64,000 nucleotides of DNA from NCBI GenBank assembly GCA_022530585.1, contig CP092821.1:585525-649524 (forward strand), written 5' to 3'. The notes beneath the pieces were generated by a model. That model had not been told where the DNA came from and did no database searches. It was given only the letters and a program-made list of their open reading frames with translations. This document shows positions 3,187 to 53,825 of the stretch, one piece after another. Source of the stretch: Candidatus Nealsonbacteria bacterium DGGOD1a (GTDB taxonomy: Bacteria > Patescibacteriota > Minisyncoccia > Minisyncoccales > UBA5738). Every line of letters begins with the position of its first letter. Positions within the stretch are counted from its first letter, which is position 1. The position numbers and the translations under genes were made by a program.

Positions 3187-3295
3187 AATGGCTTTGATAA
3201 ACCCTTATTTTCTATTATTTCATTTCTCATTGAATTTTCAAGTTAAAAATTTGTTAAAAAGCAAATTTTGAATTAAAATGAAACATAATTTAATA

Positions 3296-3482
3296 GTTGG
3301 CCTAACCCTCGTAATTTAATCTGCGAGGTATGGCGTAAAAACCTGTTGAAAATACTGAACTCCACGTTCAGCAATCTTTCAACAGGTCATATCGGGAAAC
3401 CGGTATGGAGCCGCAAGGCTCAGCTGGCGTGGAGCTCTGTGTTTATGTGCGCTCTATGGCCAGCCAAAACGGCCATTTTTTG
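3296..3482 (+). ncRNA. Candidate structured RNA of unknown class (independent sRNA or cis-leader of the 3502 gene)
   Basis: Nested hairpin 3342-3386 (cctgttgaaa/tttcaacagg) encloses ctgaac-TCCAC-gttcag. There are two GNRA-capped hairpins, tatcgg-GAAA-ccggta and gagcc-GCAA-ggctc. The loop TCCACG is complementary to CGTGGAG at 3428-3434. An intrinsic terminator atggcc...ggccat+T7 lies at 3456-3482. Confidence 0.35.
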
Positions 3483-6775: not shown

Positions 6776-7546
6776 ATGAAACCAAAAAGATTGACGGCAA
6801 AGCAAATCTTTGAAAAACGGCGCGATTATCTTGATATTGCGCGACAAAGAGACGCTTATTATGAGCGTATAGGTAACAGCCCTCTTGTTGGTTACGCGGG
6901 CAAGTATAACGGTCCTGACGGCCAGAAATTGCAGTTTGTCGGATTTGCATATATCAATGTTGCAAAACTGGAAGAATGTCCAGCTGATGACCTCGATTTC
7001 ATAGGCACCGAATTGGCCGATAAAGCAAGAGCAAAGTTAGGCCAATTGTCCAAAAAAACTGTTCTCGTGGCAGCTCCTGTCGGCGGTTATGCCCTATCAA
7101 TTGACCTTGGGCGCAAACTAAAATGCCGGACAATCAAGGCCGAGAAGAAAGTAACCAAGGTCGGAATTGAGGGCCAGCGTGACGAAACCAAGCTGGTTTT
7201 AGACCGCCACGAGCTATCAGAAAGTGATGAAGTTATAATTGTTGAGGATGTTTGCAATAATTTCTCAACAACGCTTGACCTAATCCGCTTGGTAGAAAGT
7301 TTTGGCGCAAAGGTAATTGCTATCGTATGCTACTTGAACAGGTCTCCTGACTACGACTTCGTATATAATCCCAGTGGCACAGAATACAATATCCCCATTA
7401 TCCCACTGGTGCGCCAAATAATAGCAGAATTCAAACAAGATGCCCCAGAGGTAATGGAGGACATTAAAAAAGGGAACATCGAATGGAAACCAAAGAAAAA
7501 GGAAAGCTGGGCCAGGTTAATGAAAGCAATGAGGGCTGTATCTTAA
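6776..7546 (+). CDS. Type I phosphoribosyltransferase (orotate PRTase-like, with an N-terminal extension)
   Basis: PRPP-binding motif VIIVEDVCNNFSTT. AAGGAGG lies before the ATG. Adjacent to pyrF. Confidence 0.6.
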   Translation: MKPKRLTAKQIFEKRRDYLDIARQRDAYYERIGNSPLVGYAGKYNGPDGQKLQFVGFAYINVAKLEECPADDLDFIGTELADKARAKLGQLSKKTVLVAAPVGGYALSIDLGRKLKCRTIKAEKKVTKVGIEGQRDETKLVLDRHELSESDEVIIVEDVCNNFSTTLDLIRLVESFGAKVIAIVCYLNRSPDYDFVYNPSGTEYNIPIIPLVRQIIAEFKQDAPEVMEDIKKGNIEWKPKKKESWARLMKAMRAVS

Positions 7547-7638
7547 TACACCCAATTTACATAATTGCAACCTTTGACGGAAGGTTTGATAAGAGCACAT
7601 CAAAACGCCGTCTTTTTATTTATAAATAAAGAAAAATT

Positions 7639-7953
7639 CTAAAAGGGACAATCTTTCTCAATACATTTTTCCATTCCCTCAAAGAAAATTTCTCGCCTTT
7701 CGAGCGGAATAAACCGCATTATTTGCGGTATCCATTTAGAACACCACGCTTTAATATCATCAGTTTCGTTAAATTCCTCAATAGCTTTATCCTGATTATC
7801 ACCGTTAATCAAATTTCCCAGATGAATACAGGTATGGTATCCTACCTCAAAGTAGCTATTCTTGCCGCCATCAGAGGCGTTAATAACAAGAGCCTTAAAC
7901 CAAGTAGGCAAAGCGGCATTTTTGATATTTTCTAATGATTTTTTATTTAACAT
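7639..7953 (-). CDS. Hypothetical protein (104 aa)
   Basis: ORF only. Confidence 0.45.
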   Translation of the reverse strand: MLNKKSLENIKNAALPTWFKALVINASDGGKNSYFEVGYHTCIHLGNLINGDNQDKAIEEFNETDDIKAWCSKWIPQIMRFIPLERREIFFEGMEKCIEKDCPF

Positions 7954-7979
7954 TTTGTTATTTTTAGTAGTTTTTCTGC

Positions 7980-8170
7980 CTTAATCCAAGAACTTGGACA
8001 ATTAGCTTACGGCGCATAAAGATTGCTGAATAGCGGTTCTAACGCCACATAATGCCCGCAGCTCTTCGTCGCCTCCACTCCTCAGAGCCTGCGGCCGCAA
8101 GGCCAAATACAATAGAGCGATGAAGACCCTGAACGAAGTGAAGGGACAGTATTTTTCAGGGTCTTTTCGT
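7980..8170 (+). other. GC-rich structured non-coding segment upstream of the GIY-YIG gene
   Basis: Hairpins ccaag-aa-cttgg, ccgcagctct...agagcctgcgg and ggcc-GCAA-ggcc. A terminator-like aagaccctgaa...ttcagggtctt+ttcgtt lies at 8123-8170. Confidence 0.3.
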
Positions 8171-8199
8171 TATTCTGAGAAACCGCGCGATTTGATTCT

Positions 8200-8466
8200 A
8201 TGCAGTATTCCACCTATATTCTCGAATGTGCCGATGGGAGTTTTTATGTTGGATGCACTAACGATATAGAGCGCAGATTAAAACAGCACAACGATTCAAA
8301 GTGGGGCGCGCATTACACAAAAATTCGCCGACCAGTGGAATTGCGATATGCGGAAACATTTAACGATCTTAAATCCGCTAGACAACGCGAAACTGAAATA
8401 AAAAGCTGGCGCCGCGAAAAGAAGCTGGAATTAATTGTCGCTCTTCCAATCAAAGGCCGGAGTTGA
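8200..8466 (+). CDS. GIY-YIG nuclease family protein (stand-alone URI domain)
   Basis: YILECADGSFYVGCTNDIERRLKQHN ... RETEIKSWRREKK. Confidence 0.8.
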   Translation: MQYSTYILECADGSFYVGCTNDIERRLKQHNDSKWGAHYTKIRRPVELRYAETFNDLKSARQRETEIKSWRREKKLELIVALPIKGRS

Positions 8467-8469
8467 CAC

Positions 8470-8850
8470 CATTTTGCGCTAGTTTCTTGAACTCAGTTAT
8501 TAGACTACAGAGGAATGCGCAGACCGAAGGAAAACAAAAATGTTGCTGTTGGGCGTCTTTTTTTGTAGCAAAGCGGTTTTCGGCGTGAGCTATCGCTTGC
8601 CTTGACCTTTAGGCACGGTGTCGGGCATTTCGAGGGGCAGCCGGACAAAAGCTCAAAGCTTGGAATAACCACAAACCAAAGGCGCTGTTTCCCTGAAAGC
8701 CCGGAGCAGGCGGAACGCCGACCGCGGAGGGGAAACAGCACCGGAACAAGCCCTCAAAACTTGGAATTGGCACTTACCCGGCGCAAATCAGGCTCCTAAA
8801 AACTCGTCATTTATAGAATTGAGGGTACAAGGCCCGGCCTTGTTTTTATA
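8470..8850 (+). ncRNA. GC-rich non-coding region, candidate large structured RNA of unknown class
   Basis: There is no credible ORF on either strand. Long-range pairing ctgtttccc (8686-8694) with gggaaacag (8730-8738). Duplicated motif CTCAAAnCTTGGAAT at 8652 and 8753. Terminator acaaggc-ccg-gccttgt+T5 at 8827-8848. Confidence 0.35.
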
Positions 8851-8916
8851 TATGACAAACAATAAAATATCGCGAGATACGAGCGGTGTGAGAAAAAATT
8901 ATTTGAGCTCGCGGTT

Positions 8917-8949
8917 TAAAAATTTCAGAGGGGATGGCCTTTTGTTTGC
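8917..8949 (+). repeat. 33-bp perfect direct repeat, left copy (flanks the DUF2726 gene)
   Basis: taaaaatttcagaggggatggccttttgtttgc is identical at 10102-10134. Confidence 0.9.
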
Positions 8950-8983
8950 AAAAAAATTATAATAAATAGTTATCAAATTAAAT

Positions 8984-10057
8984 ATGGACTCTTTTGTTGA
9001 TTTTACGCCAATCTATAAAATGATGGCAGATATGTTCTTGGTTATTTTTAATACGCTATTTTGGGGATTTTTATCAATGTGGCCAGTATGGACTTTTGTT
9101 TTGGTTATTGTAATCATCGTGCTTTTAGAAAGAAAACACATAAGAAATTTTTTTGATTGGGCAGGCTGGGAATTCTTTGAGATTTTAACGCGAATTTTTG
9201 GCTTATATATCCTATATTTGCTTTTGTTATTTTTTTCTCAAAGAGATAATTTTTGGAAATGGGTTTTTTATGGTTCAATAGTTATGATTGTAATTGTAGC
9301 AATCTGCTCATTGATTAGTTCGATAAATGTTAGAATAATTAGAAAAAAAATTGAAATACTTATAACAGGCGTAAAAGAAAACAACCTTGAAGAAAGTATT
9401 TATAAATTTATCGATGAATATAGCCATAGTAGTAGAAAATTAACAAAATGGAACTATCGAGGATATTCATTTGATCCCTATAAATTGGAAGATTTATCGA
9501 ATATTCTTCAAGATAAGGGAATCAATGCTTCGGTGGCCGAAACTCTATATTTAGTAAAAAGATATATCGAAAAGCGCGAGCGAGCAGCAACTTTACTTAG
9601 TCTGGAAGGAATAAACAGATCAATAGCGAAGCAAAATGAAAGCAATTTTCCATATCAAATAAATAACAATTTCCTTACCGAGAATGAAAAGAAATTATAT
9701 TACGCATTAGAGAATTTTGGAAAGAAAAATAACTTCCACATCCTATCAAAGGTTAGGCTTGAGGATTTGCTTTATCTCCCGCTAAAAACGAAAAATCGCT
9801 GGAAATATCATAATAAAGTAAAATCATATCACATTGATTTTGTAATATGTGATTATCAAAGTTTAAAACCAAAAATTGCGATTGAACTTAATGATTCAAC
9901 CCATTCTCGCCCCGATAGACAAAAACGTGACAAATTTATTAAAGAAGTTTTCGAGAGTATAAATCTACCATTGCTGTGGATGGAAACTCATAATTTCTAT
10001 GATCCAAATGAAATTTCAACAAGAATATTGAATATATTAAACCCCAACCAAAATTAA
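8984..10057 (+). CDS. Membrane-anchored DUF2726-type (PD-(D/E)xK nuclease-like) protein
   Basis: N-terminal TM helices. The C-terminus NEKKLYYALE...ILSKVRLEDLL...HIDFVICD...IAIELNDSTH matches the DUF2726 pattern (recalled). Confidence 0.6.
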   Translation: MDSFVDFTPIYKMMADMFLVIFNTLFWGFLSMWPVWTFVLVIVIIVLLERKHIRNFFDWAGWEFFEILTRIFGLYILYLLLLFFSQRDNFWKWVFYGSIVMIVIVAICSLISSINVRIIRKKIEILITGVKENNLEESIYKFIDEYSHSSRKLTKWNYRGYSFDPYKLEDLSNILQDKGINASVAETLYLVKRYIEKRERAATLLSLEGINRSIAKQNESNFPYQINNNFLTENEKKLYYALENFGKKNNFHILSKVRLEDLLYLPLKTKNRWKYHNKVKSYHIDFVICDYQSLKPKIAIELNDSTHSRPDRQKRDKFIKEVFESINLPLLWMETHNFYDPNEISTRILNILNPNQN

Positions 10058-10101
10058 AGCCGTTCCAAATTTACCCCAAACGGACAGCGATTCGCCTTCA
10101 A

Positions 10102-10134
10102 TAAAAATTTCAGAGGGGATGGCCTTTTGTTTGC
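10102..10134 (+). repeat. 33-bp perfect direct repeat, right copy
   Basis: Identical to 8917-8949. Confidence 0.9.
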
Positions 10135-10241
10135 GAAAAAAACGGATCAAGGACGGTAAATTGGATTGAATCAGTACTTATTTAAATAAGTATTTAAATA
10201 AGTACTCGATATGGGTTGAAAAATTGGAGAGAAAAATATTT

Positions 10242-10726
10242 ATGATTATATTTATTAATGGTTCGATCAATGCCGGGAAAAGCACTGTTGCCAAGATATT
10301 GGCCGAGAGAATCGGTAACGCGGCTTTGGTTGAAATTGATGTCCTTAGGGAAATGATCGGATGGATGCCGATTGACCGGGCTGTTCCCATCAATCTCAAA
10401 AACGCGTTATCGGCAATTAAAAATTTTGCCGATGAAGGATTGAATATCATTGTTCCTTACCCGTTATCGCAGAAAAATTACGACTATTTGAAAAAGGAAT
10501 TAACGGGCATTGATTCGGATATCTTTTTTTCACGCTGGCGCCGGAATTGGCCAGGATATTAACAAACAGGGGCGGGCGGGAATTAAATGATTGGGAGCGG
10601 GATCGGATAAAATATCATTACCAAACAGGCATACAAAAACCTTCGTTCGGGAAAGTAATAGACAATACCAAACAAACTCCGGAAGAAACAGCCAATTTAA
10701 TATTTTCAATGATTTTTCACCGATAA
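10242..10726 (+). pseudogene. P-loop kinase-like protein broken by a frameshift at a T7 run (10524-10530)
   Basis: The Walker A motif GSINAGKST is in frame 1. The C-terminal half (TLAPELARILTNRGGRELNDWERDRIKYHYQ...EETANLIFSMI) continues in the next frame if one T is added. Confidence 0.6.
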
Positions 10727-10731
10727 TTTTT

Positions 10732-11226
10732 ATGGAAAAACCGGCTGGTAAAATTATTATGGGCAATGTGTGCTTTATTATTGATAGAAAAAACAATAAA
10801 GTGTTGTTGCTCAAAAGAAACCGCGCGCCGATGCAATCCATGTATACGGGCGTGGGCGGCAAAACCTTATCCAATGAAAGTCCGTTTGACTCTTGCGTTC
10901 GCGAGGCCAAAGAAGAAACCGGATTGGATATTTCGGAGGTTAAACTCAAGGGTGCGGTAAAAACAATTTTGGATGGAGGCGACTCTTCGTGGATTCTTTC
11001 GGTTTACACTGCCGGCGGTTTTTGCGGCGAGATGATTGAATGCGGTGAAGGAAAACTGGAATGGGTTGATATCAACTCCATCAATTCCCGCAAATTGATC
11101 GGGTTTATAGAAAAGATAATGCCGTATATTCTGGACGAGAGCGTAATCTTTGATGGAGTGATTATTCACGACATCAAAGGCAATGTTATCAAGGATAGCA
11201 TCAAAACATATTCGGCGCAGAATTAA
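10732..11226 (+). CDS. NUDIX hydrolase
   Basis: Nudix box GVGGKTLSNESPFDSCVREAKEETGL. The start was chosen at an in-frame ATG after the kinase-like stop. Confidence 0.75.
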   Translation: MEKPAGKIIMGNVCFIIDRKNNKVLLLKRNRAPMQSMYTGVGGKTLSNESPFDSCVREAKEETGLDISEVKLKGAVKTILDGGDSSWILSVYTAGGFCGEMIECGEGKLEWVDINSINSRKLIGFIEKIMPYILDESVIFDGVIIHDIKGNVIKDSIKTYSAQN

Positions 11227-11418
11227 AACTATGAATAAAAAAATTATATTTATGGCGACAGCCGTTGTTCTGGCGGCGGCGGCATGATTAGCGTTTATTT
11301 TTGGCGGTAACCACATTGATGGTTTTTTTGCAGATCATCGCATGGAGAATGAATTGGCTGTCGGGATACTGGTTGTTATGCTATAATTAAATCGCGACGA
11401 CAAATAAATATAAAGAAT

Positions 11419-11766
11419 ATGAAAATAATTAAGTGGACGGCGAGAATAAGCGCGCTTATCATCTTGGTTTTTGGTTTGTTGTTTTATTTCGGCTACGGAA
11501 ACCCTCTGCCGTTCGCCAATCCGAACTATTCATTGTGGGAAAATGTCGCACTGGCGATGATGCCTTTGATTTTTATCGGACTCGCTTTGGGTTGGAAATA
11601 TGAAAAAACCGGAGGTTATCTCGTGGTCATTCCAATGGCGATAGGTTTCTTGGTGGGACTGGCAACCGCCGCGAATTTCAGCGTCAATATGCTTTGGCCG
11701 CTGATTCCGGGAGGGTTGTATCTGGTATCGGGATATATGAATAATTCCCTGACAAAAAAATCTTAG
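11419..11766 (+). CDS. Small integral membrane protein
   Basis: 115 aa with 3-4 hydrophobic helices. Confidence 0.55.
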   Translation: MKIIKWTARISALIILVFGLLFYFGYGNPLPFANPNYSLWENVALAMMPLIFIGLALGWKYEKTGGYLVVIPMAIGFLVGLATAANFSVNMLWPLIPGGLYLVSGYMNNSLTKKS

Positions 11767-11968
11767 AGGCTGTCTGAAAACTCCATTCAACTGCAATTTC
11801 CATATTTCGGCTGCGCCGAATTCATCAGTTGTCGGCAGACTTAGCTTAAGTATGCCTCCGCCTTCTTCATTCGGCTCGCATATTTCGCTATGCGAAATCG
11901 CTTCTGCCCCGAAATCTGAAAATTTCGTTCTGAATGGAGTTTTCAGACAGCCTCTTAGCAAGCTTTGC
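11762..11968. repeat. ~200-bp long-hairpin (MITE-like) element P1 with 25-bp perfect terminal inverted repeats
   Basis: agaggctgtctgaaaactccattca (11765-11789) pairs with tgaatggagttttcagacagcctct (11941-11965). The stop codon of the upstream gene lies inside the left arm. Confidence 0.8.
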
Positions 11969-12153
11969 CATTTCCAGTGTAAGTTTACGCCGACAAAACA
12001 CTCCGGGAAATCATCCCGGGGCATTGTTTAACTGTTTATTTAAAGAAATAATTTTTAGCGCGGCAATCTCGATTGGCCGTCTCGACCATGATTTTCGGGG
12101 ATCAGCTCACTTACGCTAAACGATCTAAAATAAGCGTTTTATAACAATTTTTA

Positions 12154-12654
12154 ATGACAATTGATGATTTGAAAAAGCTTGCGCGGGAAATAATCGCGGA
12201 GGCGCAACGACTAAAAATCGCGCATACTTCTGAAGATAAAGCGCCAGTCAATTATGCCTGCGCATTTGCCCGCCGCGTCGCGGAATACGAAGAAATGGTT
12301 GATTTGGCCCGCCAACTGGGCCCGATTGCGCGAAATACGGCGATGGGACCGGTTTTCCATATTGATCCTTTGCCCACCGTGGCGGGCAGCCTGGAACTGT
12401 TGAAAATCCGGCGGCCCGACACAAAGCGAAGGGAGAGAGGCGATGCGGATTTTACCGTGGCGAATTATGAAAATTTTAAAAAGAAATATCTTGGCAAGCC
12501 GGAATTTGGCATTATCAAACGCCCCGAAATGGAAATGGTCGAGCTGATCGACCCGACATACGACGCCCTTGCGTACTTCTCGCATCCCACACTTGTCGAA
12601 GTTATAAGAATCAATCTCGACAAAAAAATAGCCGAAACTGTCGAAACCGATTGA
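12154..12654 (+). CDS. Hypothetical protein (166 aa)
   Basis: ORF only. Confidence 0.5.
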   Translation: MTIDDLKKLAREIIAEAQRLKIAHTSEDKAPVNYACAFARRVAEYEEMVDLARQLGPIARNTAMGPVFHIDPLPTVAGSLELLKIRRPDTKRRERGDADFTVANYENFKKKYLGKPEFGIIKRPEMEMVELIDPTYDALAYFSHPTLVEVIRINLDKKIAETVETD

Positions 12655-12739
12655 TTTTATTTTTAACGGCATGGATGGCCCCAAAATCCGGCCGGCGTTC
12701 AATCTCTTTTTGAACACTACGAAACCAAAAAGCAACACA

Positions 12740-13399
12740 ATGGATATAAATATAAAAATCAAAGACCCGGTTAGCGGTTATTCTCATTTGGTTGGCGCGG
12801 TTTTGGTGTTTATCGGCACAATCGCCCTTGCGTTAAAAGCGGACGGCGCGCTCCAAATGTTTTCGTTTCTGGTTTTTGGCATTTCGGCAACCTTGCTCTA
12901 CGCGAGCAGCGCCTGGTACCATTTGTTTGGCGCGTCGGCCGAAAAAATCGGCCTGATGCGCAAACTGGATCATGCTTTTATTTATATTTTGATCGCGGGA
13001 ACCTTCACGCCGTTCTGCTTGATATTGATGGGCGGACTCTGGGGCATTATCCTTTTTGCCATAATATGGACTTTGGCCGCGATTGGAACCGGCGCGATTT
13101 TTTTTCAATCATTCTGGAAATTTTTCCCGCGCTGGGCCTATACGGGACTTTATCTGTTGATGGGATGGATCGCCCTTTTGCTGATATACCCGCTGCGGAA
13201 ACATCATGCCGTCATTGGTCTGTTGTTGCTCGGAGGAATTTTTTACACGATTGGCGCCGCGATTTACGCCCGCAAAAAACCGAACATCGGCAAAGCGATC
13301 GGTTTCCACGAACTTTTCCATTTCTTCGTGCTGGCCGGCACGCTGGCGCATTTTTATTGCGTCTGGCGCTACATCGCGATGCTGGGAAATAAAATCTAG
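12740..13399 (+). CDS. Hemolysin III / PAQR family membrane protein
   Basis: Seven TM segments. SAWYH, LDHAFIY and HELFHFFV motifs. Confidence 0.75.
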   Translation: MDINIKIKDPVSGYSHLVGAVLVFIGTIALALKADGALQMFSFLVFGISATLLYASSAWYHLFGASAEKIGLMRKLDHAFIYILIAGTFTPFCLILMGGLWGIILFAIIWTLAAIGTGAIFFQSFWKFFPRWAYTGLYLLMGWIALLLIYPLRKHHAVIGLLLLGGIFYTIGAAIYARKKPNIGKAIGFHELFHFFVLAGTLAHFYCVWRYIAMLGNKI

Positions 13400-13468
13400 C
13401 ATTTGCCCCCGGCTTGGTCTGCGCCGCGCTTGAAATAATTTTTTTTTGCGTTAATATCTAGTTATATT

Positions 13469-13687
13469 ATGAAAAAGATTGATTTAAAAAATGTGGTCTG
13501 GAAGGAAGGTAAGTATTATGTGGCGTGGAACTTAAACACTGCCATTTCCAGTTTTGGCAAAACCCGCAAGGAAGCGTTGGAGTGTTTGCGGGAAGCGCTG
13601 GAATTGCATTTTGAAGACGCGCCCGCTTCCACGATCAATAAGGTTGAACGGCCGGATTTGGTACCAACCAGTTTTAAATATGCCTAA
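13469..13687 (+). CDS. hicB: HicB-like antitoxin
   Basis: 72 aa. WKEGKYYVAW...GKTRKEALECLREALELHFED. Overlaps hicA by 8 nt. Confidence 0.65.
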   Translation: MKKIDLKNVVWKEGKYYVAWNLNTAISSFGKTRKEALECLREALELHFEDAPASTINKVERPDLVPTSFKYA

Positions 13688-13895
13688 GCCGATACCCTTG
13701 AAATCAGTTTTGAAAGTCCTTAAAGAAAGGGGCTTCTTTTTTATCCGACAAAAAGGTTCGCACGCGCGGTTCCGCAAAATCGGCAATCCAACCCGCAATG
13801 TTACGGTTAAAACAACTTGCAATGAAATCCCGTATGGCACTTTTCAATCAATACTCCTCCAATCCGGTTTAAAAGAAGAGGATTTTTTTAATTAA
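13680..13895 (+). CDS. hicA: HicA mRNA interferase toxin
   Basis: MPKPIPLKSVLKVLKERGFFFIRQKGSHARFRK; the YcfA/HicA GSH motif. Confidence 0.75.
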   Translation: MPKPIPLKSVLKVLKERGFFFIRQKGSHARFRKIGNPTRNVTVKTTCNEIPYGTFQSILLQSGLKEEDFFN

Positions 13896-14010
13896 AAAAT
13901 ACATTGATGTCGGGGTATTAACCCCGCCATCGACCAAAGGATGTTTCCTTTGGAATTCTCATTCTTTTTGTTCCCCGCGGCAAGTTGACGAGGTATAAAA
14001 AGAATAAATC
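13896..14010 (-). repeat. Three-hairpin interspersed element, subfamily F1, copy A
   Basis: aaaaatacattgatgtcggggtattaaccccgccatcgaccaaaggatgtttcctttggaat.ctcattctttttgttccccgcgg..gctgacg.ggtataaaaagaataaat. The strand given is the G-U-compatible strand. Confidence 0.85.
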
Positions 14011-14015
14011 TCGCC

Positions 14016-14251
14016 ATGTATTTTGTCTACCTTATCCAATGCGGCGACGACAGTATTTACACCGGCATTGCCACGGATGTGACGCAACGGTTCGAAAAAC
14101 ACAAAAACAAAAATGGCGGACATTGTACCGCCAGCCGCGGGACAAAAAAATAATCTATTCCGAAAAATACGCCGCCCGGTTATTGGCCTCAAAGCGGAAA
14201 ACTGAAATCAAAAGCTGGGCTCGCGCAAGAAAACTTCGTTTGGTCAAATGA
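14016..14251 (+). pseudogene. Second GIY-YIG nuclease gene, frameshifted in an A7 run (14144-14150)
   Basis: Frame 1 reads MYFVYLIQCGDDSIYTGIATDVTQRFEKHKNKNGGHCTASRGTKK*. The next frame continues [29 protein letters not shown]. One extra A would restore it. Confidence 0.7.
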
Positions 14252-14255
14252 CATT

Positions 14256-16118
14256 ATGAAATCTTTGCTTAAACAATATTTTGGCTATGATGAGTTCCGG
14301 CCTTTGCAGGAGGAGATTGTCAATCACATCATTGCGGGAAACGATGCGTTTGTTTTGATGCCCACGGGCGGGGGAAAGTCGCTTTGCTATCAACTGCCCG
14401 CGCTAAAATTCGCGGGGCTGACCTTGGTGATCTCGCCTTTGATCGCCTTAATGAAAGACCAAGTGGACGCGCTGAAAACCAACGGCGTGGACGCGGAATT
14501 CATAAATTCATCGCTGTCGCCAAAGCAAACCGCGGAAGTTTTTGGCCGCGTTAAAAGCGGCGCGGTTAAAATTTTATATGTTGCGCCGGAAAGATTTGCT
14601 TTGAGCGCCTTTCAGGAATTTTTAAAAAGCTTGAATATCAGTTTGATCGCGGTGGACGAAGCGCATTGCATTTCCGAATGGGGCCATGATTTCCGGCCCG
14701 ATTACCGCCATTTGAGCCGACTCAAAGAACTTTTCCCAACGGTACCGCTGGTGGCCCTAACCGCCACGGCCACCAAAAAAGTGCGCGAAGATATTGCCGG
14801 CCAGCTGCAATTGCGAAGCGCGCGAGTTTTTGTTTCCAGTTTCAACCGCGAAAATCTGCATCTGCGGGTGGTCGAAAAGAAACAAGCTTTTCCGAAATTG
14901 CTGAATCTTCTGCAAAATTACCGCGATGAACCGGCAATCATCTACTGTTTTTCGCGCCGGGAAACCGAAGAAATCGCCCAGGATTTGCGCGCGCACCGAT
15001 TCAAAGCCGAAGCCTACCACGCCGGATTGAGCGCCAAGGATCGCAACCGAACGCAAGAACTGTTTATTAAAGACGAGATAAGCGTGATCGTAGCCACGAT
15101 CGCTTTCGGCATGGGCATCGACAAGCCGGATGTGCGATTGGTGGTGCATTATACTTACCCCAAAACCCTTGAGGGTTACTATCAAGAAATCGGCCGCGCC
15201 GGGCGCGACGGCCTGGCCAGCGAATGCGTTTTGTTTTACACCTATGCCGATACCCGGAAACACGAATTTTTCATCAACCAAATCGAAGACGGCGACGCGC
15301 AAAAACGAGCGATGGCTAAATTGCGCGAGGTAATGAATTATGCCGAATTGAGTTCTTGCCGGAAAAAATATATTTTAAGATATTTTGGCGAAGATCTTGC
15401 GGCCGATAACTGCCAAGGATGCGATGTTTGCGTCGAGAAAAACGCGGCCAAAACAACCCCGGCGGGAAATGACCGAAACTTCGACGGCACAATTGTCGCC
15501 AAAAAGATTATTTCAGCCGTTATCCGGCTTCATGGCCGCTTCGGTAAAAATTATGCGGCCGATGTCCTGTTGGGAAAAAGAACCCAAAAGATAACGGCAA
15601 ACCGGCACAACCGGCTTTCGGTATATGGAATTGTCGGCGATTTTTCAAAAAACGAACTTCTGCAAATTATGGATCAACTGGTGAATCTGGGTTTGCTGGC
15701 AAGGAAAGAAGGGCTTTACCCGGTTTTATCGGCCACCCGGAAGGGATTGATTTTCGCGCAAGGCGGCGAACGGCTTGAATTGCGAAAATTGATTGAAAAA
15801 GAAACCGAACCCGCCAATATCCCAGAAACCAAAAAAGACAACGCCGCTTTCAATCGGGAACTGTTCGAAAAACTGCGCGCTTTGCGCAAGGAACTGGCCG
15901 ATAAAGCCGGCGTACCGCCATTTGTTGTTTTCAGCAATGTATCGCTTCAGGAAATGGCTTATTATTTGCCGCAAACCACCGACGATTTCGGCCGCATCAA
16001 CGGCGTGGGCGCAATGAAGCAGAAACAATTCGGAAAGATATTTCTTGCCGCGATAAACAAATTTGCCAAAGAAAACAATACCGGCGGAATAAAAAATACA
16101 TCGATGTCGGGGTATTAA
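14256..16118 (+). CDS. recQ: ATP-dependent DNA helicase RecQ
   Basis: [29 protein letters not shown], the zinc motif CRK...C..CDVC, and a C-terminal HRDC-like region. Confidence 0.9.
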
Positions 16119-23131: not shown

Positions 23132-23971
23132 ATGTCCAATAAAAAAATTATAATTGCGTTAGCCGTGCTGGCAATACTGTCGTCAACCCAAAACGCCGCC
23201 GCGATTTCAATGAACGAATTGCCGGCAACCCGGGGCAACGCGGCAACCTCGACCGATATGACCAAAAATAGAGGCGCAAACGACAACGGACGAAACGCGC
23301 TTTCAAAGATACAAGAAAGAGGCGGCGAAGAAATCGACCGGCGGGTTGAGTCGTTGAATAAATTGGAAGAACGGGTGCGATCAATGATAAAAATAAACGA
23401 CAGCCAAAAAAACGCGATTATCGCGCAATTACAAACGCAGATCGAGTCGCTGAACGCGCTTAAAGCCCGGATCGCGGCCGGGACAAGCGCGAGCACCACT
23501 TTGGAAAACGAAAAGAAGATAACCAAAGAGTTCCGCGTTTATGCCCTGACGATTCCGCGGGGGTACATCATCGCCGCGATCGACCGAATCGACAATATGG
23601 CCCAGAAATTGCAAGGTTTGAGCGATAAACTCGCGGCCAAAATTACGGAAACCAAACCCGATAACGCGGCCAAGCTGCAAGAAAGCGTTGCCGATATGAA
23701 TACCCGAATCGCCAACGCCAGAACGCAAGTGATGGCGGCGCAAGCAAAAGTTGAAAATTTAAAACCGGACAACGGCGATGAGGCAATCGCCAAATCAAAT
23801 CAGGAAGCTTTGATCGCCGCCAAAGGATTGGTAAAGACCGCCACAAATGATTTGAATTACGCGCGCAATGCCGCCAACGCCCTCGCCAAAGAACTAAGAA
23901 AACTGGGAATCAAAACAAATGTCGGCTTTGGCGCCGCCACCACAACCGCCTCGACCACGACAGAATTATAA
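23132..23971 (+). CDS. Secreted coiled-coil-type hypothetical protein
   Basis: Signal peptide, Ala/Lys/Asn-rich helical repeats; 279 aa. Confidence 0.55.
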   Translation: MSNKKIIIALAVLAILSSTQNAAAISMNELPATRGNAATSTDMTKNRGANDNGRNALSKIQERGGEEIDRRVESLNKLEERVRSMIKINDSQKNAIIAQLQTQIESLNALKARIAAGTSASTTLENEKKITKEFRVYALTIPRGYIIAAIDRIDNMAQKLQGLSDKLAAKITETKPDNAAKLQESVADMNTRIANARTQVMAAQAKVENLKPDNGDEAIAKSNQEALIAAKGLVKTATNDLNYARNAANALAKELRKLGIKTNVGFGAATTTASTTTEL

Positions 23972-53681: not shown

Positions 53682-53825
53682 TGTCTATAAACGAAAAAAC
53701 TCCCAAGCCTATTCCTTTCGGAAACGCGGCGATAAACGCCACAATTTGGCCTGGAAGCGATTCCAATTTCAGCATAACCGCTATGCTGGTAATGTCAAGT
53801 ATAATCATCCACAGTTAAATTCCCT

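Follow-up and report, generated by a model that had tools for sequence, protein, structure and literature searches.

A GIY-YIG gene with a folded 5′ arm and an apparently unrelated structured element side by side in a Candidatus Nealsonbacteria genome

Integrative elements that target tRNA genes insert at the tRNA 3′ end with direct repeats, and integron cassettes are tiny units with a single open reading frame (ORF) and a folded, single-strand-type site. Phage T4 carries SegB, a free-standing GIY-YIG homing endonuclease gene, in a tRNA gene cluster (PMC2330249). The Ssn nucleases are single-domain GIY-YIG proteins of 94 amino acids (aa) which, according to the report on them, cut only single-stranded DNA beside hairpins flanking their own gene, RNA and double-stranded DNA being no substrates (Chenal et al. 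2025, PMC11893778). Here we describe a locus of Candidatus Nealsonbacteria bacterium DGGOD1a (contig CP092821.1, positions 585,525 to 649,524 of the forward strand; this whole stretch of 64,000 nucleotides is called the window, and coordinates are counted from its first letter) in which an 88-aa GIY-YIG ORF stands between two structured, non-coding segments. The upstream segment carries a conserved folded arm, element A, and the downstream segment a longer conserved element, element B. We think it probable, if far from certain, that the region is a composite of two unrelated mobile-element relics, A with the ORF on the one hand and B on the other, which are independent of each other. The locus is laid out as follows.

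8062 to 8145, forward strand: element A, the conserved structured arm of the GIY-YIG cassette (nhmmer, MAFFT with RNAalifold, covariance model R2)
8200 to 8466, forward strand: GIY-YIG ORF, 88 aa, UPF0213-like (Pfam match; relatives in the PDB)
8505 to 8569, forward strand: candidate terminator of the GIY-YIG transcript, a hairpin and U7 run whose 3′ part overlaps the start of element B (z = -2.4; not called by the terminator scan)
8549 to 8819, forward strand: element B, a conserved non-coding structured element (nhmmer E 7.6e-36 to 1.3e-62; profile match 8554–8820)
8827 to 8850, forward strand (hairpin 8827–8843): intrinsic terminator ACAAGGCCCGGCCTTGT followed by a T run (terminator scan)

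The GC fraction is 0.47–0.51 at 7950–8174 and 0.52–0.57 at 8550–8850, against 0.28–0.39 in the adjoining DNA, as had been noted when the locus was first read from its letters alone (the sequence-only reading). The mean of the 64-kb window is 0.435 and several further 200-nt stretches reach 0.57–0.62, so that the rise around the nuclease gene is local and not unique. That the flanks would hold no plausible ORF and fit no known RNA family was likewise borne out. No ORF of the GC-rich parts has a Pfam match, and the downstream part proved non-coding (see below). The covariance models of Rfam 15, including those for RNase P, tmRNA, signal recognition particle RNA, 6S RNA, group I and II introns, riboswitches and self-cleaving ribozymes, gave no match at 7960–8850 even at E <= 10, and no tRNA or tmRNA was found by ARAGORN anywhere in the window. 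Both flanks are indeed conserved in other genomes and structured, as expected from the first reading; each proposed segment contains a conserved unit, the upstream one being confined to 8055–8145 rather than extending over 7980–8170. Rfam 15 includes neither element, nor was either met with in the literature searched. Sequence matching the locus, 99.75–100% identical over the 1.6 kb compared, is present in JGI 2061766000, JGI 2020627003 and SRR21915714.

The product of the ORF matches PF01541 with an E value of 1.1e-17 over residues 3–75 of 88, and its nearest solved structures, PDB 1zg2 (E 1.2e-13) and 1ywl (E 2.5e-11), are both named ‘UPF0213 protein’. The catalytic Tyr of GIY, Tyr of YIG, Arg and Glu are present, the motifs TYIL, FYVG, RRLKQHN and RETEIK being kept in the window and in relatives, as read from the translations. 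By these features the protein can be assigned to the GIY-YIG superfamily and, within it, to the UPF0213-like single-domain branch. Seg and Tev enzymes have a C-terminal DNA-binding domain; no such domain of the I-TevI/Seg type is present in the window protein, which is a bare catalytic domain of 88 aa, and the NCBIfam model grpIintron_endo gives it 17 bits against a cut-off of 56. As with SegB-type genes, we would be dealing with small selfish nuclease genes among or behind tRNA genes, copied together with flanking sequence. Unlike Seg/Tev genes, the cassette has a conserved folded arm and shows target duplications of the tRNA 3′ end.

One genome per species was scanned with the window's own protein, which was thus the starting point of the sampling, and 72 loci from other genomes were obtained, 42 of them from Patescibacteria (candidate phyla radiation, CPR; L004–L045, the L-numbers being the locus labels of this analysis). 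Among these 42 the protein is 67–80% identical. With the upstream segment as query, nhmmer matched 26 CPR loci, always immediately 5′ of the GIY-YIG gene. A first, block-based covariance model (R1) aligned real sequences poorly and was replaced by a second (R2), which found one copy each in 37 Patescibacteria loci and in the window (67.7 bits), all on the gene strand; ten clearly distinct loci among the 37 lay outside the training set. Scores were 38–84 bits on the sense strand versus 15–39 bits on the opposite strand. A full-sensitivity search of 7500–15000 and one of the whole window under default filters detected no further copy. The stretch 8467–8990 gave at best 5.8 bits and thus no second copy downstream, so the two flanks are not copies of one motif.

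In most of the CPR loci the cassette is linked to tRNA-Gln. For 29 of the 42, ARAGORN called a tRNA-Gln gene (CUG or UUG) that is on the same strand and lies at most 200 nt upstream; three more have one within 1.1 kb. The arm of the relatives begins at the first base past the discriminator of the intact tRNA-Gln (...CCCGCAG/C-N-CUUC, the slash marking the junction), and tRNAs were the sole matches when 36 related GIY-YIG loci were compared with Rfam 15. Outside the CPR, homologues follow tRNA-Thr, -Leu, -Ser, -Val or -Phe; no tRNA linkage was seen in the phage homologues examined.

The boundaries of the unit were obtained from near-identical copies. L010 and L018, from different assemblies, share a 98.5% identical block that starts at the tRNA/arm junction (-103) and runs to +223, and nothing else within 3 kb on either side. 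Two copies on the same contig, L016 behind tRNA-Gln(UUG) and L020 behind tRNA-Gln(CUG), are 98.4% identical over 369 bp. In both pairs the similarity stops just past the ...WRREKKxxLI codons, and the protein tails beyond differ. In L008, L017, L020 and L039 the last 16–22 nt of the tRNA are repeated just past the stop codon, and this right-hand copy has a different, native trailer (in L039, for example, CACTT and then a terminator). Finally, relatives with a 60%-identical neighbouring phosphoribosyltransferase (PRTase) gene have other genes downstream, with none of this region and no cassette at the site. An arm and ORF unit of ~370 bp thus looks mobile. By the same boundaries, the window cassette would run from 8062 to ~8433, its right edge falling after ...WRREKKLELI, and the last 10 codons (~8434–8463) would be derived from the flank.

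The constant adjacency and orientation to tRNA-Gln, together with the 67–80% identity of the protein across L004–L045, could also be explained by vertical inheritance, the GIY-YIG protein being a housekeeping partner of tRNA-Gln (in processing or repair, for example) and A its regulatory region. This is quite improbable in our view, given the 98% identical DNA in unrelated contexts, the contig with two copies behind different tRNA-Gln isoacceptors, the target duplications, the relatives that share a 60%-identical neighbouring gene and lack the cassette at this site, and the copies, that of the window included, which have no tRNA.

Other insertions were noticed around the same tRNA genes. In L025 (2804–2868), L021 (~20–75) and L040 (2689–2912), the DNA upstream of the cassette holds partial tRNA-Gln copies in which a short insert, ending in a CCGCC-TYT-GGCGG hairpin, sits precisely at the position of the T loop (…/AATCC), a pattern suggestive of another type of small insertion into this tRNA. 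L004 has a two-ORF insert (1858–2882; ~120 and ~155 aa) between tRNA-Gln-CCA and the cassette, bounded by the repeated 13-mer GCACGAGACGCGT; a similar sequence, GAGACGCGTCGTTT, lies downstream of the L020 cassette (~3290–3310). In L052 (2617–3001), within a tRNA cluster, a GIY-YIG ORF directly follows tRNA-Phe and is itself followed by a partial tRNA-Phe duplicate and a second GIY-YIG gene.

The fold of element A, in window coordinates, comprises the following helices.

8063–8072 with 8117–8126, forward strand: helix P1, formed in relatives by the 5′ strand and a segment 40–100 nt downstream
8087–8089 with 8093–8095, forward strand: triloop hairpin P3, 3 bp with a 3-nt loop
8127–8145, forward strand: hairpin with tandem G·A pairs, a stem followed by GA on both sides (GA hairpin)
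8061–8065 with 8084–8088, forward strand: alternative helix B, 5 bp, indicated by covariation

RNAalifold, run on a MAFFT alignment of 24 unedited sequences, recovered this fold without fitting, predicting P1, P3 and the GA hairpin with 7 compensatory pairs. In a block alignment of 33 sequences (A1), which was hand-fitted to P1 and the hairpin arms and is hence biased, P1 pair 5-48 is UA in 12, AU in 11 and CG in 10 sequences, P1 pair 10-43 is GC in 16 and UA in 16, and the stem of the GA hairpin is 100% paired with compensatory changes at three of its four pairs. Helix B joins G73 of the tRNA and the first four cassette bases to AG-N′-GC. It is 100% paired and covaries perfectly at the same three-state nucleotide as P1 pair 5-48, and a second compensatory change can be read from the sequence of L006. 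Helix B is mutually exclusive with both P1 and P3. From base-pairing rules, the tandem G·A pairs should be favourable on the sense strand only. The hairpins are made of GC stems with loops of 3 nt. GCGAAGC is the sequence at several of the apices, and as DNA, d(GCGAAGC), it folds into a mini-hairpin of unusual stability.

Several other assignments for element A were rejected. Hammerhead, HDV-like, K-turn, T-box and RNase P-like folds, considered by eye, misfit at core positions and Rfam was silent; a terminal inverted repeat between the 5′ strand of the leader and the EKK codons at the end of the ORF showed no covariation with the three-state position. The GA-hairpin design (4-bp stem, GA, 2-bp stem, small loop, GA) also occurs elsewhere in the window, in GCCAGAACGCAAGTGATGGC at 23717–23736 on the forward strand.

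Positions -12 to -7 before the start codon read T24 A25 (T/A) A22 A29 T27 (counts out of 40 sequences), often after TG, and in 20 of 35 loci exactly 6 nt separate the best -10-like hexamer (TAnAAT) from the start codon. The relatives' extended -10 promoter would thus give a leaderless mRNA, and the arm would lie upstream of the mRNA start in most copies. At the same time the arm directly follows the tRNA, leaving no room for a terminator, and must therefore be transcribed as a tRNA 3′ trailer. Both points bear on a serious rival to a DNA function: A may act as RNA, forming a structured trailer 3′ of tRNA-Gln and, in transcripts that read through into the GIY-YIG gene, the 5′ leader; the alternatives of helix B versus P1 and P3 would govern tRNA 3′ maturation, insulate the tRNA, or stabilise or regulate the mRNA. 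Co-transcription with a tRNA whose discriminator is 1 nt away, the inclusion of discriminator G73 in helix B and the tolerance of G·U pairs all agree with such a role, as do alphaproteobacterial relatives linked to tRNA-Thr, where the 5′ strand is flush with the tRNA end and has two alternative partners. The conserved extended -10, 6 nt before the start codon, would however place most mRNA starts downstream of the arm; the 3-nt loops of the hairpins are unlike typical RNA tetraloops, no Rfam family matches, and the signatures of mobility, though compatible with an RNA role, are left unexplained by it. On balance we hold it possible but rather unlikely that A works in this way; the two functions, DNA recognition and RNA trailer or leader, are compatible.

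The alphaproteobacterial relatives, L060–L074, come from metagenome-assembled genomes in which ~110 nt separate the tRNA from the GIY-YIG gene and a common leader, UCCGCUUUCGC…, follows tRNA-Thr(GGU) in most cases and tRNA-Leu(AAG) in L074. The 5′ strand of this leader can pair with GAAACGGA or with GAAAGCGGA downstream, which echoes the alternative between helix B and P1 in the CPR loci.

The window copy has two further features.

8033 to 8061, forward strand: possible remnant of the 3′ end of a tRNA-Gln, with the hairpin GCGGTTCTAACGC, resembling a T arm, at 8033–8045 and an acceptor 3′ strand with discriminator, CCCGCAG, at 8055–8061
8123 to 8165, forward strand: apparently window-specific hairpin with perfect 11-bp arms (8123–8133 and 8155–8165), a 21-nt loop and a TTTTCGTTATTC tail (z = -3.2)

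Only the heptamer CCCGCAG is firmly homologous in the tRNA-like vestige. No cloverleaf directly upstream of element A was found by ARAGORN or with Rfam RF00005, a decayed tRNA at 7955–8059 was rejected since its global alignment to tRNA-Gln genes was no better than that of shuffles, and a direct repeat of the tRNA-like end past the ORF (AATGC..GCAG, 8514–8522) was discarded because 1549 of 2000 shuffles scored as well. A 45-nt insertion before the ATG supplies the 3′ arm of the 8123–8165 hairpin, and no canonical -10 box precedes the ATG. This hairpin overlaps the 3′ end of P1 and the GA hairpin and so competes with the conserved fold. The sequence-only reading had capped each flank with a terminator-like hairpin. 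The downstream one, 8827–8843, is called by the terminator scan; the upstream one is a real hairpin, uncalled by the scan and with no counterpart seen by eye in relatives. The copy in the window, having neither a tRNA nor a canonical -10 box, may be inactive.

By analogy, Ssn is the closest characterised system to the element A cassette. Both combine a ~90-aa single-domain GIY-YIG protein with an insertion-sequence-like architecture, and a GC-rich hairpin, its loop 3 nt long, accompanies either gene in fixed orientation and strand; the Ssn stem can form from two separate strands (PMC11893778), and P1 of element A forms from two distant segments. The tandem G·A pairs, favourable on the sense strand only, and the GCGAAGC apices add to the likeness. 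Unlike the Ssn motif, that of the cassette is confined to the 5′ side and is not scattered over the sequence, and the Ssn report, in the parts consulted, makes no mention of tRNA linkage, of junction helices such as P1 and helix B or of a leaderless promoter (PMC11893778). The cassette also resembles tRNA-targeting integrative elements and integron cassettes in its insertion at a tRNA 3′ end, its direct repeats, its content of about one ORF and its folded site at one end, and differs from them in having no integrase, its enzyme being a nuclease unable to religate alone.

From the conservation, structure, genomic associations and boundaries described above we infer the following working of the cassette. 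It consists of a folded left arm of ~85 nt, normally a putative extended -10 promoter of its own, and a single-domain GIY-YIG nuclease of 80–88 aa, and normally starts at the first base after a tRNA-Gln gene; as a unit of ~370 bp it is widespread in Patescibacteria, the window copy standing without an intact adjacent tRNA. The arm would act as a folded single strand, the sense strand, and would be the nuclease's own module of recognition and cleavage, as NTS hairpins are for Ssn nucleases. P1 and helix B, which both hold junction nucleotides, would position the tRNA/cassette junction, and recombination stimulated by the nuclease would spread the cassette into tRNA-Gln genes, with the tRNA 3′ end carried along or duplicated. 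Taken alone, homing by way of single-stranded DNA is a tentative proposal, which we would place a little short of probable. A bolder version would make the arm and ORF an undescribed class of minimal mobile element, in which a hairpin-directed 80-aa nuclease and an 85-nt folded arm target tRNA genes, and in which the junction helices, helix B and P1, pair with the tRNA 3′ end and the first trailer bases as a built-in guide that sets the insertion point. This version, as a whole, is doubtful.

A number of observations weigh against this account of element A. P1 and helix B are equally possible as RNA helices of a tRNA trailer, and alignment A1 carries the bias already mentioned. The duplicated tRNA ends start in the T loop, ~17 nt from P1, so that the cut site is ambiguous. 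The SRM/NTS motif HGTCWY..YYVSBRH..WNVSBRG..RNCYNB has no occurrence in the 64-kb window (0.3 expected) or in the 377,841 nt of the 72 loci, and GA-type hairpins, unlike NTS repeats, are not dispersed in the window (61 found versus 57 expected). The nearest solved relatives of the protein are UPF0213 proteins and not established Ssn enzymes; in the window copy the tRNA and the canonical -10 box are both missing; and nuclease activity, its substrate (DNA or RNA) and mobility are all deduced from sequence comparison.

Homologues of element B were reached by another route. Translation of a minus-strand pseudo-ORF, compared with 1.84 billion representative proteins, matched short ‘hypothetical proteins’, and their contigs hold DNA homologous to 8549–8819 (E 7.6e-36); these ‘proteins’ are ORFs called across the same non-coding element. 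When four homologues of a coupling protein (76–88% identity) were fetched, all four loci carried B, 0.3–2.8 kb downstream on the same strand. In total, the B profile matched six other contig families, two reached via the pseudo-ORF and four via the coupling protein, with 58–86% identity to the window copy. One of them, L174, is a partial copy cut by the end of the locus. In the other five, which hold enough sequence, B lies on the same strand, 0.3–2.8 kb downstream of a module made of Replic_Relax (PF13814), a 188-aa protein and a TraG/TrwB-type type IV coupling protein (T4CP). Element A is absent from the coupling-protein loci carrying B, and around the window copy of B no relaxase or T4CP is present within 64 kb. 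Beyond B, two coupling-protein loci (L167, 4380–4930, and L171, 1–560, reverse strand) share further conserved non-coding sequence, namely an inverted repeat AAATATCAAAG…TATTTGATAT upstream of B and CCAACGCACACCTTTTACCCCCACCTTGCGGCTAAAATGCGTTGG downstream of the terminator, neither of which is in the window.

Searches elsewhere gave no trace of B. It is absent, by profile search, from all 72 GIY-YIG loci of other genomes, nhmmer with the downstream segment matched none of them, and most of them have a reading frame of 80 codons or longer that begins no more than ~100 nt from the stop codon. Four viral-contig scans gave chance matches or none, and blastn against phages and plasmids gave nothing. 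An exact scan of metagenomes for the two-module pattern returned 49 matches, all due to chance; the true homologues escaped it, since the conservation of module 2 is not exact. An interruption of element B by the GIY-YIG cassette was rejected, since homology to the T4CP loci is confined to 8549–8819.

These results bear on the speculation, made when the locus was first read, that the downstream segment encodes a guide or scaffold RNA for the nuclease. It is true that B is conserved and structured, and that it lies downstream of the nuclease gene, 83 nt away and on its strand. Its presence in none of the 72 GIY-YIG loci of other genomes, its occurrence in six other contig families without the GIY-YIG arm, and the cassette boundaries, which from near-identical copies end inside the 3′ end of the ORF and leave B out, make such a role extremely improbable. 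Co-inheritance with the nuclease, expected of OMEGA- or CRISPR-type RNAs, is not seen for B; A is co-inherited with it, but lies upstream of the inferred transcription start in most loci. In related genomes it is the upstream element, on which the sequence-only reading had laid less weight, that accompanies the GIY-YIG gene, and not the downstream one. As part of the composite, B is probably an orphan copy with no functional tie to the GIY-YIG gene.

Within element B the following structures can be drawn.

8598–8602 with 8611–8615, forward strand: hairpin H1
within the repeat 8637–8677, forward strand: small hairpin SL-a
8681–8694 with 8729–8742, forward strand: long central hairpin, with apical helix 8706–8713 with 8718–8725
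within the repeat 8738–8778, forward strand: small hairpin SL-b, followed by the 3′ domain

Among six homologues, the variable columns at the three codon positions number 27/62, 28/62 and 28/63 for the minus-strand ORF and 30/64, 28/63 and 31/65 for the plus-strand ORF, and indels of 1, 2 and 5 nt occur. Substitutions spread evenly over codon positions and indels of these sizes indicate that B is non-coding, neither an intact nor a decayed protein gene; the latter case, raised at the outset as one that would overturn the RNA interpretation, shows no third-position excess. The 9-bp long-range helix first proposed is real and extends to 14 bp (8681–8694 with 8729–8742), and the duplicated module was also confirmed, 8637–8677 and 8738–8778 being 71% identical; a 15-mer of the module has two exact copies versus 0.44 expected by chance in the window at up to 2 mismatches. 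Of the conserved-looking RNA of ~380 nt, a conserved unit remains, of ~270 nt (8549–8819): the whole 384-nt stretch folds no better than shuffles (z = -0.73), the central hairpin giving z = -3.4 with 0 of 200 shuffles folding as well.

This central hairpin is 99% paired in seven sequences, one pair being CG in 4 and UA in 3 and a U·G pair being kept in 6 of the 7; two compensatory pairs are found in the apical helix, and in L175 the apex is swapped for an unrelated hairpin. Each repeat module forms a small hairpin in most homologues. The homologues end in a long A5-stem-T5 inverted repeat or hairpin, in place of which the window has its own terminator, and the five loci carrying B gave no Rfam 15 match at E <= 0.1.

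By its context, B would be either a small RNA of the Replic_Relax/188-aa/T4CP module or the transfer origin of that module. The wobble pairs and the terminators speak for an RNA, the genomic context and the invariant flank beside the inverted repeat for an origin of transfer (oriT). A DNA cis site of the relaxase/coupling-protein module, oriT or other, with no RNA made, is a strong contender that we would rank as quite possible and not quite probable. It would account for the constant strand and downstream side of B relative to the module, for a long inverted repeat followed by an invariant flank (ACCGG.ACAA), for the conservation of the sequence itself in 11 of 14 basal stem pairs, and for the further inverted repeats in the same intergenic regions. 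It fits less well with 16 G·U cells, among them the U·G kept in 6 of 7 sequences, with the compensatory changes, with the replaced apex of L175, with the terminator-type hairpin that ends every copy, and with a window copy that has no relaxase or T4CP within 64 kb. Covariation in favour of an RNA is itself tempered by the sample, seven distinct B sequences in total, in which most stem pairs are invariant. As a structured non-coding unit tied to a relaxase/coupling-protein module, B resembles the oriT regions or small RNAs of conjugative or mobilisable elements. It also resembles orphan RNA motifs of Patescibacteria, such as LOOT and DUF3800-IX, in being GC-rich on an AT-richer background with a terminator at its end; unlike those motifs it matches no Rfam 15 family. 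Both motifs are found in the same window as matches above the Rfam gathering score, LOOT at 3299–3421 on the forward strand (89 bits) and DUF3800-IX at 53695–53758 on the reverse strand (50.7 bits).

The nuclease ‘sandwich’ is, on the composite account, a juxtaposition of two unrelated mobile-element relics in a variable region. Further features of the window lie nearby. A second, divergent GIY-YIG gene at 14016–14251 (forward strand) lies in two frames, as a 45-aa N-terminal ORF (14016–14153) and a C-terminal part in the ORF ending at 14251; the break is apparently due to a frameshift in an A run. A sequence like a tRNA 3′ half, GATGTCGGGGTATTAACCCCGCCATCGACCA, lies upstream of it at 13905–13945 and is not called by ARAGORN. 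The frameshifted gene is adjoined by a RecQ-like helicase gene (14256–16118) and by a 113-aa ORF (13554–13895, forward strand) whose C-terminal part appears by eye to be HicA-toxin-like (…KGSHARFRK…). A 41-nt direct repeat, 97.6% identical, occurs at 8917–8956 and 10102–10142, one copy preceding the DUF2726 gene at 8984 and the other the next gene, the ORF at 10224; the repeat may be a shared promoter or operator.

As to method, conserved non-coding element B was missed by exact-pattern scans and was found via spurious ORF calls alone. Type IV systems of Patescibacteria have been reported mostly without known relaxases, and their conjugative role has been questioned (PMC12102498). A conserved cis element of a relaxase-like module is of interest in this group, where relaxases seem rare, and if B were an oriT or a regulatory RNA, the question of conjugation in Patescibacteria would become directly testable. 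Single-domain GIY-YIG proteins are abundant and almost uncharacterised, and Ssn, the one family studied, is of use in biotechnology. Through a lineage that is linked to tRNA genes and has a covarying arm pairing at the junction, the function of UPF0213-like proteins becomes open to testing. If the built-in guide were true, the three covarying classes, U/A/A, A/U/U and C/G/G, would represent a nucleic-acid-programmed step in target choice, and other phyla may have related forms behind tRNA-Thr, -Leu, -Ser, -Val and -Phe. The tRNA-linked lineage could also bring to light a mobile element of a new and very small type in the reduced Patescibacteria genomes.

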